64,000 bases of DNA, from NCBI GenBank assembly GCA_020637435.1, contig JACJVW010000003.1, positions 4,787 to 68,786 on the forward strand, read 5' to 3'. The notes beneath the pieces were generated by a model. It did no database searches, was not told the DNA's origin, and saw only the letters and a list, made by a program, of their open reading frames with translations. Positions 6,292 to 60,874 of the stretch are shown here, piece after piece. The stretch comes from Candidatus Woesearchaeota archaeon. Its GTDB lineage: Archaea > Nanobdellota > Nanobdellia > Woesearchaeales > JACJVW01. The translations under genes were made by a program, and so were the position numbers. The stretch's first letter is position 1. Each line of letters starts with the position of its first letter.

Positions 6292-6386
6292 GGGTCCATA
6301 GCTTAGCCTGGTATAGCATTCGGCTCTTAATTGGGCTTTTCCAAGCTGAAACCGAAAGGTCGGGGGTTCGAATCCCTCTGGACCCA
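6292..6386 (+). tRNA. tRNA-Lys(CTT) with 21-nt intron (6330-6350) at position 37/38
   Basis: GGGTCCA/TGGACCC acceptor stem, TTCGG/CCGAA anticodon stem, CTT at 6326-28, GGTTCGAAT T-loop. Confidence 0.9.
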
Positions 6387-6701
6387 TACCTCTTCTTTAA
6401 GTCTATCTGTCTGAACCCCGGGGTTCGAATTGTTGTGAACGAAGTGAACAACATAGACATGAGCTTGCTCATGGCGTTCCCTCTGGACCCATACCTCTTC
6501 TTTAAGTCTATCTTTCTGAACCTTGGGGTTCGAATTGTTGTGAACGAAGTGAACAACATAGACATGAGCTTGCTCATGGCGTTCCCTCTGGACCCATATA
6601 TCTTCTTTAAGTCTATCTGTCTGAACTTTGGGGTTCGAATTGTTGTGAACGAAGTGAACAACATAGACATGAGCTTGCTCATGGCGTTCCCTCTTGGTCC
6701 A
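6387..6701 (+). repeat. 3 x 105-bp tandem repeat, each ending in the tRNA-Lys 3' end with a hairpin cassette in the T-loop
   Basis: Units 6387-6491, 6492-6596 and 6597-6701, near-identical with a few substitutions. Confidence 0.95.
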
Positions 6702-31987: not shown

Positions 31988-32117
31988 GCGAGGGTGGCAG
32001 AGCCTGGTCAAATGCGCAGGACTTAAGCGACCTATGATGGAGACAACCAAGCGCGTGCTTGGGTCTAAGTTATCCTGTCCCTTAGTGGGTTCGAGGGTTC
32101 GAATCCCTTCCCTCGCA
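31988..32117 (+). tRNA. tRNA-Leu(TAA) with 44-nt intron (32028-32071)
   Basis: GCGAGGG/CCCTCGC acceptor, CAGGA/TCCTG anticodon stem, long variable arm, perfect BHB (CTTA/TAAG central helix, GACC/GGTC). Confidence 0.95.
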
Positions 32118-32140
32118 TTATTTCTCATTATCCTTCAGTC

Positions 32141-32220
32141 GAACCCTAGGGTTCAAAGTGTTGTGAGCTGATGCGGACAACATAGACATGGATTTTTCCA
32201 TGTCGTACCCTACCCTCGCA
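32141..32220 (+). repeat. tRNA-Leu 3'-end copy with T-loop hairpin cassette
   Basis: GAACCCTAGGGTTC...TGTTG/CAACA-TAGA-CATG/CATG-TCGT-ACCCTACCCTCGCA. Confidence 0.85.
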
Positions 32221-38625: not shown

Positions 38626-40533
38626 ATGGACAAGTATGAGTATGTGTCGAAGTTTAAGACGCTGATTACGCGTGAACGTAACGCAGAGATTGAGTTTCAT
38701 ACTGAGGAGATTAAGTCTCTTAAGCCGTTTGCCCGTGAGAAAAAGGGGCGGGCTTTGCTAGATATGGTGAAGCAATCTTTTAAACGGGAAGGGGAGTCGG
38801 TGTTCCGCTTTGTGAAGATGAATGGCGAAAAGCTTCCTCACAATGAATTTGCGATAGGTACAAACGTGCTTATCAGTTCTGGAAGACCGCTTGAGCATCA
38901 CCTTAAAGGTGTGGTTATGCAAAAAAGCGGAATGCACCTGGATGTGTACGTGCAGACGCAGTCAAATATGCTGCAACGGGACCGTCTGCGTATCGATGTC
39001 TATGTGAATGATACGACGTATCAGGCGCAGCTACAGATTCTTGATAATTTTAAGGAATGGGCGCTTGATAAACGAACTATCCGTGAGGTTCTGCTTCATG
39101 AGATGCGTCCCCGGCTTGGCAAGGGTGGTGATGTAGAGTACTTTGATGAACTCTTAAACGAGTCACAAAAACTGGCTGTCTCGTATGCCTTGCAGGAAGA
39201 TGATTTCTATCTTATCCAAGGTCCTCCCGGAACAGGAAAGACGAAGACTAGCATCGAGATCGTCAGGCAGCTGATTAAGCAAGGTAAGTCGGTTCTTGTC
39301 AGCGCTGATTCGAATGTAGCTACGGACAATATCATGCTTGGTCTGGTGCAACATACATCTGTGATACGGATTGGTGAGAGTCCAAAAATCAGCGAAGAGA
39401 TTGAGGAGCATACCCTTCAAAATATGGTCAAACAAAGTGCGGGTTATCGAGTTATCTCTGAGGGTGAAGCTTTGGTCAAGAAGTACAGAGAAGAGCAGCG
39501 CAAGCATACCATGCCTACGAAGAAGAATAGTGCAGGTGTGTCACATTTCCAGATCGTAAAGATGGCAGAGCGTGAGCAGTCCGGCTTTGGTATGTCGGTC
39601 GATACGCTGAAATCCATGGCTAAGTGGATTAAGTTTCAAGAGAAGATTAAATTCATTCATAAGAAACTAGATGGCGTTCGCAGAAAGGTTATGAAAGGGT
39701 GTATTGATAGCGCTTCGGTTATCTGTACGACGAACACGACTGCCGGGAGTCATCATCTTGATGGCATCACTTTTGATGCAGTCCTTATCGATGAAGCTGG
39801 GCAAAGCACTGAACCCAGCTGCCTAATACCAATCTCTAAAGCGAAGAAGGTTATCCTGGTGGGTGATCATAAGCAATTGCCACCTACTATCCTTAGCAGG
39901 AACGCACAGGAACTGAGCGTTTCACTCTTCGAACGGATGTTCGGGCATTGCAGATACACACTTCTTGATACACAATACCGTATGCATCCGCTCATCAATC
40001 AGTTTCCTAGCGATGAATTCTATGAGGGTAAGCTCAAAACGTACAGTAAGAATGTGAGTCATGTTATAAAGGATCCAGTTTTTGAAAAGAATGTAGTATT
40101 TATTGATGTTAAGGGTGTTGAGAAGAAGTTTAAAGGTGCGACAAGCTACTATAACGTACCTGAAGTTGATCGGATTATGGACCTTGTTGAAAAGTATGCT
40201 AAGCATGGGGTTAAGGCAGAAGATATTGGTGTTATCAGTCCTTACAATGAGCAGGTGCGAAAACTGCAGGAGCGCATGCCTTTTGTTGAGGTGCATAGTA
40301 TTGACGGATTTCAGGGGCGGGAGAAGAAGGTGATTATCATATCTCTGGTTCGTTGCAATGGCCGTGGAGAGATAGGTTTTCTTAAGGACCTTCGAAGACT
40401 TAATGTGGCACTTACGCGAGCTATTTGTGAGCTGGTGGTGATCGGTGATGAGAAGACTATCTGCTCCAATGCTACGTATCGGCGATTTGTTGATTTTGTA
40501 AAGAAGGACGGAACGTATATTTCTAAATCTTAA
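38626..40533 (+). CDS. SF1B helicase, Upf1/IGHMBP2 family
   Basis: [46 protein letters not shown]. Confidence 0.95.
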   Translation: MDKYEYVSKFKTLITRERNAEIEFHTEEIKSLKPFAREKKGRALLDMVKQSFKREGESVFRFVKMNGEKLPHNEFAIGTNVLISSGRPLEHHLKGVVMQKSGMHLDVYVQTQSNMLQRDRLRIDVYVNDTTYQAQLQILDNFKEWALDKRTIREVLLHEMRPRLGKGGDVEYFDELLNESQKLAVSYALQEDDFYLIQGPPGTGKTKTSIEIVRQLIKQGKSVLVSADSNVATDNIMLGLVQHTSVIRIGESPKISEEIEEHTLQNMVKQSAGYRVISEGEALVKKYREEQRKHTMPTKKNSAGVSHFQIVKMAEREQSGFGMSVDTLKSMAKWIKFQEKIKFIHKKLDGVRRKVMKGCIDSASVICTTNTTAGSHHLDGITFDAVLIDEAGQSTEPSCLIPISKAKKVILVGDHKQLPPTILSRNAQELSVSLFERMFGHCRYTLLDTQYRMHPLINQFPSDEFYEGKLKTYSKNVSHVIKDPVFEKNVVFIDVKGVEKKFKGATSYYNVPEVDRIMDLVEKYAKHGVKAEDIGVISPYNEQVRKLQERMPFVEVHSIDGFQGREKKVIIISLVRCNGRGEIGFLKDLRRLNVALTRAICELVVIGDEKTICSNATYRRFVDFVKKDGTYISKS

Positions 40534-43500
40534 TGTAGATGAGGTAGTCGGGTGCATCTTCTACCGTGCCATCATCAGGGACTATTATCTGATAGTCGTG
40601 CTGTTCATAGTTGTAACCGTAAGTGCTGTTGTACACGTAGCCTGTGTAGAGGATCTGGTCATTGTTGACATCATATAGAATGACTTGCTTAAAAACAGAA
40701 GATTGATTGGTGCCGTTGACATTGAGATGGGTGGTATTGCATGTGTTTGGAAGTATCGCATCAGGACTTAATGTAATTAACGGGTGGTCAGGCGTCCCGA
40801 AGGTGTTGTGCAGGTTGTCGGATGCCGTGGAAAGTCCCAGCAGTACTTCTTCGTCATCCTGGTGCGTATCATTTGCACAGGTTACATTGGCGAATGAGAT
40901 GGTGGAACGTGCTGCGATGATATAGCTTGGTCGGATATCACCCCAATCGAAAGCAACGTTGCTTGCATCATCGCGCAACCGGACTGATGCATTAGCTCTA
41001 CCATAGAAGAAATGCCAGTTTGTACTCCGTACGCTTTGAGAAAGGTTGAGTATGGTGACATAGCCTCCCTGTCCACCAACAGCAGCACCTGCTATCAATA
41101 CATCGTCTACTGCAGATAGAGTCGAATAGCCAGTACGATTACAGGTTACATTGAACCAATGGAAAGCATACGTGCTGAAATTATGCTCAAAAGTGAACTG
41201 TGTGCCTGTATTAGTCATATTCTGGACTGTAGGGTCATCGCTGAAGAAGATCTGACAGGAAGCGTCATTGATATGGTTGCCTGAAGTATGGTTTGTGTAG
41301 TTCGCGTAAAATGTCACGCTCGTGTTTATCTCGCTGTAATTGGTCTCAACTGAATCATAGATAACAAGGTTTGAGTTGGCGCCGATGCTGTAAGTCGTGA
41401 AATGACTGACTGTGAAAGAGATTACACCTCCTGCATTGCTTACTATGGTGCAATCAGCACATACTTGTCCATCCTGTAGTATCAGTGGGTTTTCAATGTT
41501 TATGTTTTTCAAAGTGAGTGTCGCTGACCTGTTTAAGGCAGGAAGATTGGTGGTGTCAATCGTTATGGTGTTTTGGCTTATGGTGACAAATTCAGGAATA
41601 TCACCACCCTGTGAGAGGTCTATTGATTCAGAGAAGTTGATGCTGCCGTATGAGATCTTTTCCAGCACCATGTTGGTTATGTTGCTCAGATTCTGACCTC
41701 CAAGAGAGGTAGTTGCGCCGTCGAACCCGGTCAGATGGGAGACGAACACATAGGCTCCGTTTCCAGTATCGTCACCACCGTCATCAGAGAAGCATTGTAT
41801 ATTCCATGCAAGAGTACCTCCATCATCTGCTGACCAGGAGATGGTATCAGATATATTGCGTGTTACGCTGGTGTCATTGGCTACCTGAATACCATCTATG
41901 AGCAGGGTGCAGTATGTTATCGTATCAGTCGCGTCTACGATGTATGAGAAATTGATGAGGCTGCCAGTAATGTAACTTTGATTAAATGGTGAGTTTAGGG
42001 TGATGTTGACTATTGGTGGTGTAAGGTCTTCAACTATAGTTATCTTGAAATGTTCTGTGAGGTTTCGCTCAGTACCATCTTCGTATATGGTGAAAAAATC
42101 CCATTCACCAATTTGTGTTGCATTGACTGTCCAAGTCGTTGTGCAGTTCTCCCCATCATTAAGGTTGTTTAGGCAGCCGTCAGTATTTGGATTGGTTGTG
42201 GTTGTGTAGAAGGGGTCAGCACCATTCCATGAGCTAATGTAAGGTACGACTCCTTTGGGTAAAGTTGTGCTTAGGTCAATGCGCGGATAATACTCATCTG
42301 TTTGAGTATCATATAGTTTTTTACCCGCGTTTTGCAGCTTCGTTTTGATATCGAGAGGTGATATCTCGTGTCCGTAGCTGGTTCGATAGTATTGTTTCAT
42401 GAGTGCTGCCGCTCCGGCAACTTGCGGTGTAGCCTGAGATGTACCATGTTTTGCAGTTGTTCCTCCCGTATGGGAAAATGCAATGATTTCTGCACCCGGT
42501 GCAAGGAGGTCCATGATACTTTCTCTGTTTGTGAAGCAGGTGAGTTTGTCTGCAGCTGTTGAGGTATCTGAGCAGGAGGAGTACGACCATCCGTGTCCGT
42601 AATTGTAGTCAAATACGGCACCAACAGAGACAGCATTAGCTACGCATGCCGGTGAACTGATTCCTGTGTAATCAGCATCATTTCCTGTGGCAGCGACTAC
42701 GAAGATATCCTGGCTTACAGCAGTGTTGATTACTGTTGCTTCAGAGGGATATGAACCGTCACAAGCTGATGCAAATCTTGACCCACCTCCCAGGCTTAGA
42801 GATATCACTGAAATGTTGTAGGTAGCCGCATTGTCAACGCACCAGTCAATTCCTGCAATTACATCAGAATTGTATCCTGAGCCAGCTGAGTCAAGCACCT
42901 TAATTGCCACAATATTTGCTTCAGGCGCTACGCCAATGTACTGATTGTAATTTCCTGCAGCGATGCTCGCGCAATGCGTGCCATGACCATTATCATCATC
43001 AGCAGCAGTGTCTTCAGGGGTATTGTCTGGGCAGCAATTATCTGTGCAGTAACAATACTCGGCTACTATTCGGTCTTGAAAACCTGCATGGTCAGTGTCT
43101 ATACCCGTATCAACAACACATATAGTCTCCCCTTTTCCTGTAATATTGGTTGAATTTACATAGAGATTCCAGGCTTGTTCTGCCTGAATAAGTGGGGAAC
43201 TTTGTGTCAAACTTATATGTACGGGCTTTATTGTTGTAATGGTTTTAATGTCAGGGTCTTCAAGAAGCATATCAAGCCCTTTTTGCGTAATGCTTCCTGC
43301 CAGAGACGGGATTGTTTCATACCTGGTTACTTGTTCTATATTCTTAGGTCCAACGCTCATACCAAATACCTGAAACAAGGGGCGGTTTAGGCTATTGACT
43401 ATTCTGTCCTGTTTTCGGTCAATAGCTACTTTTTTTGATTGCATGGAAATGGCTTGAGCTGTCACTAGGTCTGTCTCGAAAGTAATGATGACTTGAACTC

Positions 43501-50743: not shown

Positions 50744-51180
50744 AGCCTGGTACACAGACCGAACAAGTTCGTTCTTGCCTTGCTCACTCTCTTCGCAAGG
50801 GATCGTTCGGTTGGCATTGCAATTTCTCCACTATTCTATGTTAAAACTTATAAAGAGATGAACAAGAACTTAGCTATTATGGGCTTGTAGCTCAGCCTGG
50901 TATACAGACCGAACAAGTTCGTTCTTACCTTGCTCATTCCATTCGCAAGGGATCGCTCGGTTGGCATTGCAATTTCTCCACTATTCTATGTTAAAACTTA
51001 TAAAGAGATGAACAAGAACTTAGCTATTATGGGCTTGTAGCTCAGCCTGGTATACAGACCGAACAAGTTCGTTCTTACCTTGCTCACTCTCTTCGCAAGG
51101 GATCGTTCGGTTGGCATTGCAATTTCTCCACTATTCTATGTTAAAACTTATAAAGAGATGAACAAGAACTTAGCTATTAT
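50744..51180 (+). repeat. about 3 x 150-bp tandem repeat of promoter plus tRNA-Ala 5' half with a D-loop hairpin insert
   Basis: GGGCTTGTAG recurs at 50881, 51031 and 51181; the first unit is truncated at 50744. Confidence 0.95.
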
Positions 51181-51276
51181 GGGCTTGTAGCTCAGCCTGG
51201 TAGATCGCTCGGTTGGCACAATCATCATCTGATTCCAAAGATCGAGAGGCCGCGGGTTCAAATCCCGCCAAGTCCA
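51181..51276 (+). tRNA. tRNA-Ala(GGC) with 22-nt intron (51219-51240)
   Basis: G3:U70 pair, GGC at 51215-17, perfect BHB (TTGG/CCAA, AATC/GATT); C11/T24 mismatch in the D-stem. Confidence 0.92.
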
Positions 51277-52811: not shown

Positions 52812-52924
52812 GGGGCTGTAGTGTAGCTTGGACGTAGTAATGCTGCGTATCGCAGCATTGCTAGGGAGCAATATCACTGGCGGTTCGGGGCCGCCCAACC
52901 GGAGTTCGAATCTTCGCAGTCCCA
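52812..52924 (+). tRNA. tRNA-Pro(CGG) with 40-nt D-loop intron (52832-52871)
   Basis: GGGGCTG/CAGTCCC acceptor, GGCGG/CCGCC anticodon stem, CGG at 52886-88; GCTT/GAGC central helix with 3-nt bulges. Confidence 0.88.
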
Positions 52925-53090
52925 TACAAAACCATTTAATTTAAAAATTAGAAAAAGCAAAGGGTCGTAGTAAGTAGCACCACAGCATCTAGATAACGAT
53001 GCTTAGTTTGTTTGCACAAACTGTAAGCTCAGTAGACAAGCTAGTGGGTTTCTTCGCTAGCGCTCATCAAGCCCAGGAAAATCAGATATT

Positions 53091-53243
53091 GGGGCCGTAG
53101 TGTAGCCTGGAGTTGATCACAGCTGTGGTCATCGGGTACCTATCACTGGAGCTCGGGGTTCGTAGCGCAAATGCGCTGTGCTTCCAAGAAAGCACATAAC
53201 GTACGGACAGCTTCTAACCGGAGTTCGAATCTCCGCGGTCCCA
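53091..53243 (+). tRNA. tRNA-Pro(GGG) with D-loop intron (53111-53139) and 50-nt anticodon-loop insertion (53159-53208)
   Basis: GGGGCCG/CGGTCCC acceptor, GGAGC/GCTTC anticodon stem, GGG at 53155-57; position 33 is C. Confidence 0.75.
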
Positions 53244-53482
53244 TATTTCTTCCTCTGGAATCAGCAATAGAACTCCAGAGTTCGAATTGTTGAGGTTTCC
53301 TCAACATAGACACGGTTTTTCCGTGGCGTACTCCCGCGGTCCCATATTTTTTCCTCTGGAATCAGCAATAGAACTCCAGAGTTCGAATTGTTGAGGTTTC
53401 CTCAACATACCTTGTGTTAACAAGGTTCGAGACTTCAGTTGAAGAAGACATGGTTTCTCCGTGGCGTACTCCCGCGGTCCCA
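53244..53482 (+). repeat. two tRNA-Pro 3'-end copies with T-loop hairpin cassettes (101 and 138 bp)
   Basis: Units 53244-53344 and 53345-53482; the second carries extra hairpins. Confidence 0.92.
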
Positions 53483-59973: not shown

Positions 59974-60825
59974 TTAATCCTTTAGATACAGGATTTTTGA
60001 AGGTCCACCAAAGTCAGGTTTAGTCCTGTCATAAGCGTACGTAGAGATAAGCAGACCACCATCGATAGGTGCGATACCTGTTCCATTGATGCCTGGAATC
60101 TTCATCTGTAGGGCTTTCTTATCTTCAAGCGCTGCTTCAATGCCATTATCTAGGGATAATGCATAGATACCTGCTGTAACGTTGGATCTTTGATCAGGCA
60201 TAATGAGTAGTTCCCCTTCATGCTCAGCAAGACCGTACATGAATGTTGCAACTTCTGCATCTTTGCTGTTCTTCTGGATAGCTTTGAAACCTGCCAGAGG
60301 GACTTTTCCTATAGCGATCATCTCACCACTTGGGGCGATGTCGTATACTCCTAACTGGGTATTTTCATAGTTTTCGATTGTTACGATCTCACCACTTTTT
60401 AGTCTGGTGAAGTACTCGATCATATCACTGGTGTCTCCAAATACTTGTGGTTCAGGAACTGCATGACCGTTAAGGATTGCTTCAAGATCAACAATGCTAA
60501 GCTCTTTAGCACCATTCTGGAGATATAGCATCTTAGATGTGTCAGTTGGATCAATCTGAGCTACCTGGGCTCTAGGACTTAACTGGGCATCAGGTGTTCC
60601 GCTCCAGAGCTTTACAGTCTTACCATCTCCAGTTTGATCAACATACAGGTGGTTACCTAGAAATCTTTCTACTTCTAGACTTGGTGCTCTGTTCTGCATC
60701 TCAACAGAGTTAATAGTAAATCCTGGATCGAAATATTGTGCTGTAACAACTTTTCCATTAGTGGATGTGATGCCTGCGATAGGAGTAGCGCAAACGTAGA
60801 GTTCAATGAGTTTTGCGGATTTCAT
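59974..60825 (-). CDS. hypothetical protein, possibly beta-propeller
   Basis: 283-aa beta-rich ORF. Confidence 0.55.
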   Translation of the reverse strand: MKSAKLIELYVCATPIAGITSTNGKVVTAQYFDPGFTINSVEMQNRAPSLEVERFLGNHLYVDQTGDGKTVKLWSGTPDAQLSPRAQVAQIDPTDTSKMLYLQNGAKELSIVDLEAILNGHAVPEPQVFGDTSDMIEYFTRLKSGEIVTIENYENTQLGVYDIAPSGEMIAIGKVPLAGFKAIQKNSKDAEVATFMYGLAEHEGELLIMPDQRSNVTAGIYALSLDNGIEAALEDKKALQMKIPGINGTGIAPIDGGLLISTYAYDRTKPDFGGPSKILYLKD

Positions 60826-60874
60826 ACTTTAAAAAGAATTTAAATTTATTTATAAAAGTAGTGCCAATTATGGG

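Follow-up and report, generated by a model that had tools for sequence, protein, structure and literature searches.

An array of hairpin-interrupted 5' fragments in front of a tRNA-Ala gene of a Woesearchaeales archaeon as a candidate mirror-image form of tRNA-linked repeats

Directly upstream of an intron-bearing tRNA-Ala(GGC) gene of a Candidatus Woesearchaeota archaeon lies a tandem array whose units combine a promoter-like region with pieces of the 5' part of the same tRNA. This raises the question whether the units are halves of a split tRNA, genes of small RNAs, or products of DNA recombination at the tRNA gene. The array lies in a stretch of 64,000 nt (the window, to whose plus strand all positions refer unless stated otherwise) on contig 3 of the source genome G000, a 1.13 Mb assembly in 5 contigs that is 75% complete and has 45% GC. 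Tandem Repeats Finder placed the repeat at 50744-51202 (period 150, 3.1 copies, 96% matches), and the array runs directly into the gene at 51181-51276, which matched the Rfam tRNA family with 49.5 bits. We read this gene as a functional-looking tRNA-Ala(GGC) with the G3:U70 pair and a canonical 22-nt BHB intron (51219-51240) after GGCA. Its D-stem has a C11:U24 mismatch (GCTC/GATC; 51190-51206), which is common to the pseudo-copies in the array.

The leftmost copy starts with AGCCTGGTA (50744-50752), corresponding to tRNA nt 14-22 only, and continues with a 48-nt insert (50753-50800) and with tRNA nt 23-38, ending in GGCA (50801-50816). It is followed by a 64-nt upstream region (50817-50880) including the BRE/TATA-like sequence AAAACTTATAAAG, whose TATA element CTTATAAA at 50847-50854 is situated 26 nt before the next GGGCTTG; its spacing relative to other tRNA promoters of the genome was judged by eye. 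With tRNA nt 1-22 at 50881-50902 the pattern resumes and occurs two more times, in the order insert, nt 23-38, upstream region and nt 1-22, until the last nt 1-22 forms part of the real gene. The second pseudo 5' half (50881-50966: nt 1-22, an insert with the variant loop CATTCCATT, nt 23-38) is followed by an upstream region identical to the other two copies (50967-51030), and the third (51031-51116, of the same composition) by the copy that serves as promoter of the real gene (51117-51180). The preliminary description had reported units carrying a TATA-like box, the 5' 22 nt of the tRNA, a 48-nt hairpin insert and resumption of the tRNA up to GGCA. This anatomy can be read from the sequence, except in the leftmost copy (50744-50816). 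There are two full units of promoter, 22 nt and insert rather than three because the leftmost copy has neither promoter nor nt 1-13 and retains only 9 nt of the 5' part. Sequence to the left of its AGCCTGGTA is unrelated, while the inner copies have all 22 nt. The insert is predicted to form two hairpins (GACCGAAC/GTTCGTTC and CCTTGC/GCAAGG; z = -2.8 to -3.2 versus shuffled sequences). No coding capacity was found in the units, and a pseudo-half cannot form an acceptor stem or cloverleaf.

The three copies differ at six positions, all of which fall within the insert and nt 23-38 (64 of the 150 nt) and none within the promoter and nt 1-22. This clustering (p about 0.006, or 0.03 if three clustered loop changes are counted as one event) could reflect constraint on the promoter copies or homogenisation. 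As described before, units 1 and 3 have the CTCT loop and GTTCGG in common, and units 2 and 3 share TACAG and TTAC. This pattern had been ascribed to a mosaic produced by gene conversion, which is not required since the variable sites define only three haplotypes in three units without any four-gamete violation. Private mutations on a tree suffice: if unit 3 represents the ancestral state, unit 1 has acquired two changes of its own and unit 2 four.

The 9 nt that open the array recur 150 bp further on, inside the gene. As the left edge is AGCCTGGTA and the inner copies have the full 22 nt, the observed array is the exact product of an exchange between these 9-nt repeats. Unequal exchange or slippage between the seed and the gene, a step that follows directly from the sequence, would have duplicated the insert, nt 23-38, the promoter and nt 1-13, and further rounds would have led to 3.1 copies. 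Because the promoter copies are located between the two 9-nt repeats whose exchange builds the array, they look incidental, as passengers of the amplification. Transcription of every full unit is nevertheless plausible since each has an intact archaeal-type promoter at normal distance.

The observation that the array mirrors 3'-end arrays further downstream holds true, both being mirror-image forms of one phenomenon. Of the 22 tRNA genes detected in the genome, 12 are accompanied by hairpin-linked copies of one of their ends. Ten of these genes have 3'-end copies (Lys, Leu-TAA, Gly, Pro, two Ser, Thr-GGT, Trp, Met and a gene at C1:403k) and two have 5'-end copies, namely Ala and Thr-TGT, the latter with nt 1-14 and a 50-nt module, twice. 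Near tRNA genes we counted 17 3'-end and 5 5'-end copies, whereas the controls gave none with reversed ends and about 0.2 with shuffled ends. The copied piece always begins or stops at a tRNA loop, with breakpoints in the D-loop (22/23), the anticodon loop (37/38) and the T-loop (about 59-61), and the hairpin module abuts that edge. Copies of the 3' type extend from the boundary of T-loop and T-stem to the 3' end and include 0-50 nt of trailer; the end-copy repeats at the ten 3'-type loci measure 13-63 nt.

Two families of modules were distinguished. Family 1 (TGTTG..CAACA-TAGA-CAYG..CRTG-KCGT) is confined within the genome to positions behind the Lys, Leu, Gly, Pro, Ser, Thr and C1:403k tRNAs, where its flanks correspond to the respective tRNA. 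Concordantly, an nhmmer profile of this family revealed no solitary copies in the whole genome and no match to the Ala insert on either strand. At five of the seven loci the module is preceded by a loop-less perfect palindrome GAAC(N)/(N)GTTC derived from the cognate T-stem, which may be taken as a hint of processes at the DNA level. Family 2 (GTWAGCTTGAGC...GCGAAACTWAC) follows tRNA-Met here and tRNA-Ala in the sister genus, where tRNA-Thr units share only its start, GTAAGCTTGA. Exact-pattern scans of GTDB species genomes for family 1, family 2 and the Ala insert matched two sister-genus MAGs only, and these with family 2 only. The family 1 pattern was absent from 40 relatives, and neither family 2 nor the Ala insert pattern had matches in IMG/VR. 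In Rfam searches at the gathering threshold and at permissive E-values only tRNA was matched, and no family was found for the units. There is no sign that the modules correspond in sequence to introns of working tRNAs because the 9-mers shared between them are limited to T-arm words.

Several 3'-type loci are located in the window. The tRNA-Lys(CTT) gene (6292-6386) is followed by three 105-nt units (locus 6292-6701), each consisting of a trailer, the palindrome GAACCCC/GGGGTTC, a T-loop piece, two hairpins (TGTTGT..ACAACA and CATGAG..CTCATG) and a copy of the T-stem 3' strand and acceptor 3' end. One unit of the same family follows tRNA-Leu(TAA) (31988-32117; locus 31988-32220), and here an independent Logan contig is identical throughout. 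Two further units of this family follow a multi-intron tRNA-Pro-like gene ending at 53243 (locus 53092-53482), the second of which has a third hairpin segment. This three-hairpin variant of family 1 occurs at two unrelated tRNA loci (53345-53482 in the window and G000 C1:403115-403245). Its extra segment, CCTTGTG..CAAGGTTCGAGAC..GTTGAAGAA, and the insert in the Ala D-loop have the words CGAACAAG(G)TTCG and TACCTTG in common.

Both tRNA-Pro-like genes of this region (52812-52926 and 53092-53243) have inserts in the D-loop region and are missed or misread by Rfam and ARAGORN; the latter gene has an additional 50-nt two-hairpin insert at the anticodon loop. Since only 18-22 tRNAs are detectable, the genome as a whole suggests many heavily interrupted tRNA genes. 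A second class of tandem arrays was encountered in G000 with periods of 119-135 (C1:14154-14429, 40200-40723, 140873-141134 and 539611-539916; C2:3906-4249 and 60591-60863; C5:51585-51907) and, behind a tRNA, with period 76 (C1:188884-189089). Their unit is a long hairpin closed by ..AAATGTACG(A/T)AAA.. and ..GAAGCATTT.., with compensatory changes between arrays. As each of them begins 10-25 nt after a TATA-like box, they are possibly arrays of structured small RNAs.

Repeats linked to tRNA genes are reportedly an old observation in E. coli, first seen by Egan and Landy in 1978 and treated again by Rudd in 1999, and we know of no accepted explanation of their origin since 1978. In E. coli these tRNA-linked repeats (TLRs) comprise 22 units at ten loci with one to five units per locus, and the last 18-19 bp of a unit correspond to the 3' end of the upstream tRNA or rRNA (PMC8144298). 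Reading the E. coli K-12 tyrT/tyrV locus directly, we found a 178-bp repeat in 3.14 copies which encodes RttR. In each tyrV unit a trailer is followed by the T-stem 3' strand in inverted copy, by a piece that repeats the T-stem 5' strand and loop (AAGGTTCGA), by a hairpin-rich insert and finally by AATCCTTCCCCCACCACCA. As in E. coli, the archaeal tandem units adjoin a tRNA gene and end in the 3' end of that tRNA, and since the Lys, Leu, Gly and Pro units are built like those of tyrT/tyrV, we regard the 3' arrays of the archaeon as TLR-like. A terminal tRNA copy beside the gene is present at the ten 3'-type loci, and at the Ala locus in mirrored form only, as 22 nt of the 5' end. Unlike the bacterial repeats, all of which are on the 3' side, the Ala array is located on the 5' side, includes promoter copies and has its fragment split in the D-loop; moreover, the bacterial and archaeal modules have no sequence in common. 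The Ala array thus appears to be a mirror-image TLR variant, of which we found no description in the literature.

Taken together, we consider it about as probable as not (roughly 0.5) that DNA recombination at a loop site left a hairpin-interrupted fragment next to the gene, which was then amplified by exchange between the 9-nt repeats, and that no split-tRNA system is involved. Recombination or insertion at the D-loop of tRNA-Ala would first have left a displaced fragment just upstream of the promoter, consisting of tRNA nt 14-38 interrupted after nt 22 by the 48-nt two-hairpin module. Such seeds may be products of site-specific recombination of small, gene-less att-like modules by a recombinase encoded elsewhere, because the array mirrors the ten 3' loci, whose units are built like E. 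coli TLRs, because the breakpoints in the D-loop, anticodon loop and T-loop coincide with the classical crossover sites of tyrosine recombinases, and because this genome contains an integrase island with a direct repeat beginning in a T-loop. Amplification as outlined above would have followed. The extra promoters would probably fire, giving transcripts that are predicted not to be spliceable into tRNA and that would decay or read through into the real gene, from which RNase P would release the tRNA. Some findings count against this reading. No recombinase is linked to the Ala array, and units of 48-136 bp are too small for ordinary double-stranded circles. The leftmost copy is devoid of the old promoter and nt 1-13, which simple 5'-type integration should displace, so that a later deletion must be assumed. 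Furthermore, a plain attL/attR scheme does not predict the tRNA-like sequence that adjoins the insert towards the gene, i.e. nt 23-38 at the Ala locus and the T-stem 5' strand and loop in the 3' type.

The integrase island, 25.7 kb in length with 32-40% GC, is located outside the window (G000 C1:66516-92250). It is integrated at tRNA-Thr(TGT), which also has a 5'-type repeat, and flanked by a direct repeat starting at the T-loop AAT. Its defence-type gene content includes a PF00589 tyrosine integrase, a serine resolvase, an RVT_1 reverse transcriptase and type I restriction-modification. In G000 there were only three PF00589 matches: a Xer-type gene (C1:28054-28839), the integrase of the island (C1:90897-92168) and one further, weak match. 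In the sister-genus genome G003, a Xer-like recombinase gene (P0003) directly follows the Thr(TGT) unit. The direct repeats of the units are, like att sites, part of a tRNA gene, bounded by a loop, and leave the gene restored; an integrase or its remnant between the repeats was found for the 25.7-kb island only and not at the Ala units. Casposon or CRISPR-type integration was rejected, as the Cas1-family integrase (PF01867) is absent from G000; it is also absent from G002 and G003 and present in G001 only. IS200/IS605 or REP/RAYT hairpin elements were likewise rejected given the absence of the Y1 HUH transposase (PF01797) from G000-G003.

Fragments of tRNA genes at the attL and attR of integrating elements have reportedly been described by Williams in 2002. 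Archaeal recombinases cross over at tRNA loops, and tandem integration by them is documented (PMC8371274). [quoted passage not shown] The units resemble such fragments in that direct repeats begin at a tRNA loop and the gene is restored, that 5'-type integration supplies a promoter, and that tandem integration is known, with the 25.7-kb island as an example in this genome. Unlike them, units of the Ala type have no coding element between the repeats, the putative elements measure only 48-136 bp, the hairpin module abuts the repeat with a further tRNA-like piece beyond it, and over half of the tRNA genes of the genome are affected. For Caldiarchaeum subterraneum, Sugahara et al. 2012 modelled the disruption of tRNA genes by a mobile element (PMC3293823), and attP has been proposed as a vector of inserts or introns into tRNA genes (PMC3293823; PMC8371274). 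Similar to our case, recombination in that model with an element that contains part of a tRNA leaves a 5' tRNA fragment upstream of the functional copy and an intervening sequence at the junction. However, a 1.8-kb recombinase-encoding element lies between the copies there, and the new insert is a spliceable intron of the working gene, whereas here the insert is in the dead copy, without BHB or intervening gene.

The units also call to mind the attC cassettes of integrons and integrase-less elements flanked by att sites (CIMEs), in that small gene-less units able to form hairpins are stacked at one anchor site. Integron arrays depend on an IntI-type integrase, an adjacent attI and attC sites with the 7-bp GTTRRRY core. 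As in those arrays, units of different sequence here share one short boundary repeat, and some modules contain the repeat in inverted form, flanking a variable hairpin. Unlike there, the genome appears to have no recognisable integron, given only the three PF00589 matches, any of many tRNA genes serves as the anchor, and the boundary repeats are 13-60 nt long compared to the 7-bp core.

Comparison with relatives revealed rapid differences in unit content. In three genomes of the sister genus (G001-G003) units were found at four tRNA species only (10 of 116 tRNA loci). At tRNA-Ala(GGC) there are no units in G001, one in G002 and at least two in G003. In G001 (locus L019, contig C32) this gene abuts tRNA-Pro with zero spacer (..AGAGTCCA/TGGGGCTG..), and in G002 and G003 repeat units and a separate promoter are situated between the two genes. 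At tRNA-Ser(TGA), G002 has an extra 48-nt module and 15-nt direct repeat on the tRNA-proximal side compared to G001; the tandem units at this gene are unrelated in module sequence, with identical 15-nt repeats. Presence or absence of units among relatives can equally be explained by losses through repeat-mediated deletion. Among five genomes from other families of the order, 6 of 40 sampled tRNAs have units (L208, L213 and L223 in G007; L226 and L231 in G010; L230 in G019), including one of the 5' type at tRNA-Pro(CGG). A module of G007 includes a contiguous inverted copy of the tRNA 3'-end repeat and is thereby predicted to fold into a stem of 11 bp whose loop bears a hairpin. In the fragmented MAGs G001-G003, many tRNA genes are situated no more than a few hundred bases from a contig end, as would be expected if tRNA-linked repeats interrupt assembly from short reads.

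The comparison with E. coli also bears on a function at the RNA level. TLRs in tRNA operons have no known function, and in vitro binding of Hfq and CsrA has been shown for three TLRs located in rRNA operons (Stenum et al. 2021, PMC8144298). The archaeal units might likewise be small-RNA genes of the TLR type that act as regulators, decoys or processing modulators. Units of the 5' type would be expressed from the promoter copies they carry and those of the 3' type on the transcript of the tRNA, with trimming by tRNA-processing enzymes at the mimicked end. Since E. coli TLRs of the same build are transcribed and three of them (rrA/B/F) bind both proteins (PMC8144298), and since RttR is annotated as sRNA, such a role is possible for the class. 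Perfect conservation of the promoter and of nt 1-22 in every full Ala unit, while the insert varies, would fit, as would hairpin stems preserved alongside variable loops, CATG/CACG differences between loci that are compensatory, and the minihelix-like 11-bp stem formed by module and repeat in G007. We nevertheless consider this explanation rather unlikely. Turnover of the units is rapid, modules are not conserved at orthologous tRNAs between genera, and copy number varies among congeners. Furthermore, the palindromes cannot be RNA hairpins because they have no loop, most 3' units are situated behind a T-rich terminator-like trailer without a promoter of their own, the Ala pseudo-half lacks the ability to fold into acceptor stem or cloverleaf, and the Rfam searches returned no family for the units.

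A more specific form of the recombination model, which we hold to be unlikely, sees the modules as gene-less micro-elements that would home to tRNA D- and T-loops with the help of an outside recombinase, either of the host Xer type or viral, acting on a single-stranded site that folds like attC. With each insertion the tRNA would be restored and the older end-copy displaced outward, thereby giving rise to 3'-linked arrays, such as those known in E. coli since 1978, and to 5'-linked arrays like the one described here. If this were true, an occasional crossover at the opposite side of the module would place it in the working gene, and micro-elements would be a source of non-canonical tRNA insertions, of which this genome has many.

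That the arrays arose by pure local duplication, through slippage or unequal crossing-over at highly transcribed tRNA genes and with the hairpins as filler or later insertions, requires no dedicated mechanism. The 9-nt microhomology indeed explains the expansion of the Ala array, and tandem arrays of other kinds are abundant in the genome. Local duplication leaves unexplained, however, why the same hairpin module is found behind seven different tRNAs with flanks matched to each, why the breakpoints are at tRNA loops in every case, and why tandem units with unrelated module sequence have identical 15-nt repeats. As an account of the whole class it is therefore improbable.

Trans-splicing partners had been suggested as one identity of the units, which would then be working 5' halves joined to a 3' half as in the split tRNAs of Nanoarchaeum and Caldivirga. 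Similar to the promoter-driven 5' pieces of the split and permuted tRNAs of Nanoarchaeum equitans and Caldivirga maquilingensis (PMC3218864), the copies have a promoter and stop exactly at position 37/38, the canonical splice site. This position is also a classical recombinase crossover site in the anticodon loop (PMC8371274). We scanned for the BHB layout (helix, 4-bp helix, 3-nt bulge on each strand) with the intron of the gene itself as positive control, which gave a perfect BHB with 4 of 4 central pairs (TTGG/CCAA) and flanking helices of 5 bp each. In the same scan, the Ala unit junctions at the D-loop insert and after GGCA reached at most 3 of 4 central pairs and helices of at most 2 bp and thus formed no BHB, and the T-loop inserts of the Lys and Gly arrays had no BHB motif either. 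The D-loop insert was also rejected as a non-canonical BHB tRNA intron, as it does not provide the 4-bp helix and two 3-nt bulges, and would stay in the D-loop. A search for free tRNA-Ala 3' halves found none in the 1.13-Mb assembly (75% complete), where the sole (GGC) 3' half is in the intact adjacent gene, and the assembly contains no complement of the sequence after GGCA that could act as complementary leader. Trans-splicing is unsupported because there is neither a BHB at either junction nor a free 3' half or complementary leader, and because an intact gene adjoins. The split-tRNA reading is thus largely refuted, and it is extremely unlikely that the units are working halves.

Three independent Logan runs of the same population, found via exact-protein look-ups, contain the unique left or the unique right junction in contigs that stop inside the repeat, which argues that the array is not peculiar to one assembly; its copy number lacks independent confirmation because these contigs break inside the region. 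Samples of the source community are those behind SRR12358675, SRR12358676 and SRR15882951. A metagenome scan with the neighbouring CheW protein yielded no close strains since only homologues of at most 42% identity were found. Inflation of a single copy by the assembler, which the breaking of the short-read contigs might suggest, is extremely improbable, given that the copies differ at six positions, that both unique junctions were recovered in independent runs, that the one-unit Leu locus was exactly reproduced in another assembly, and that a break at the repeat is the expected behaviour of a true repeat in a short-read graph.

Repeats of this class are known from bacteria; their extension to DPANN archaea, their density here and the 5' form are new. 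In Woesearchaeales the TLR architecture is very dense, at 12 of the 22 tRNA genes detected in this genome, and variable between close relatives. Together with the promoter-carrying 5' form this shows that the phenomenon spans two domains of life and acts on tRNA genes at either end. Alleles that are empty or have one or several units provide comparative material for its mechanism, and the repeats bear on how tRNA genes gain insertions and on why short-read assemblies break at tRNA genes.
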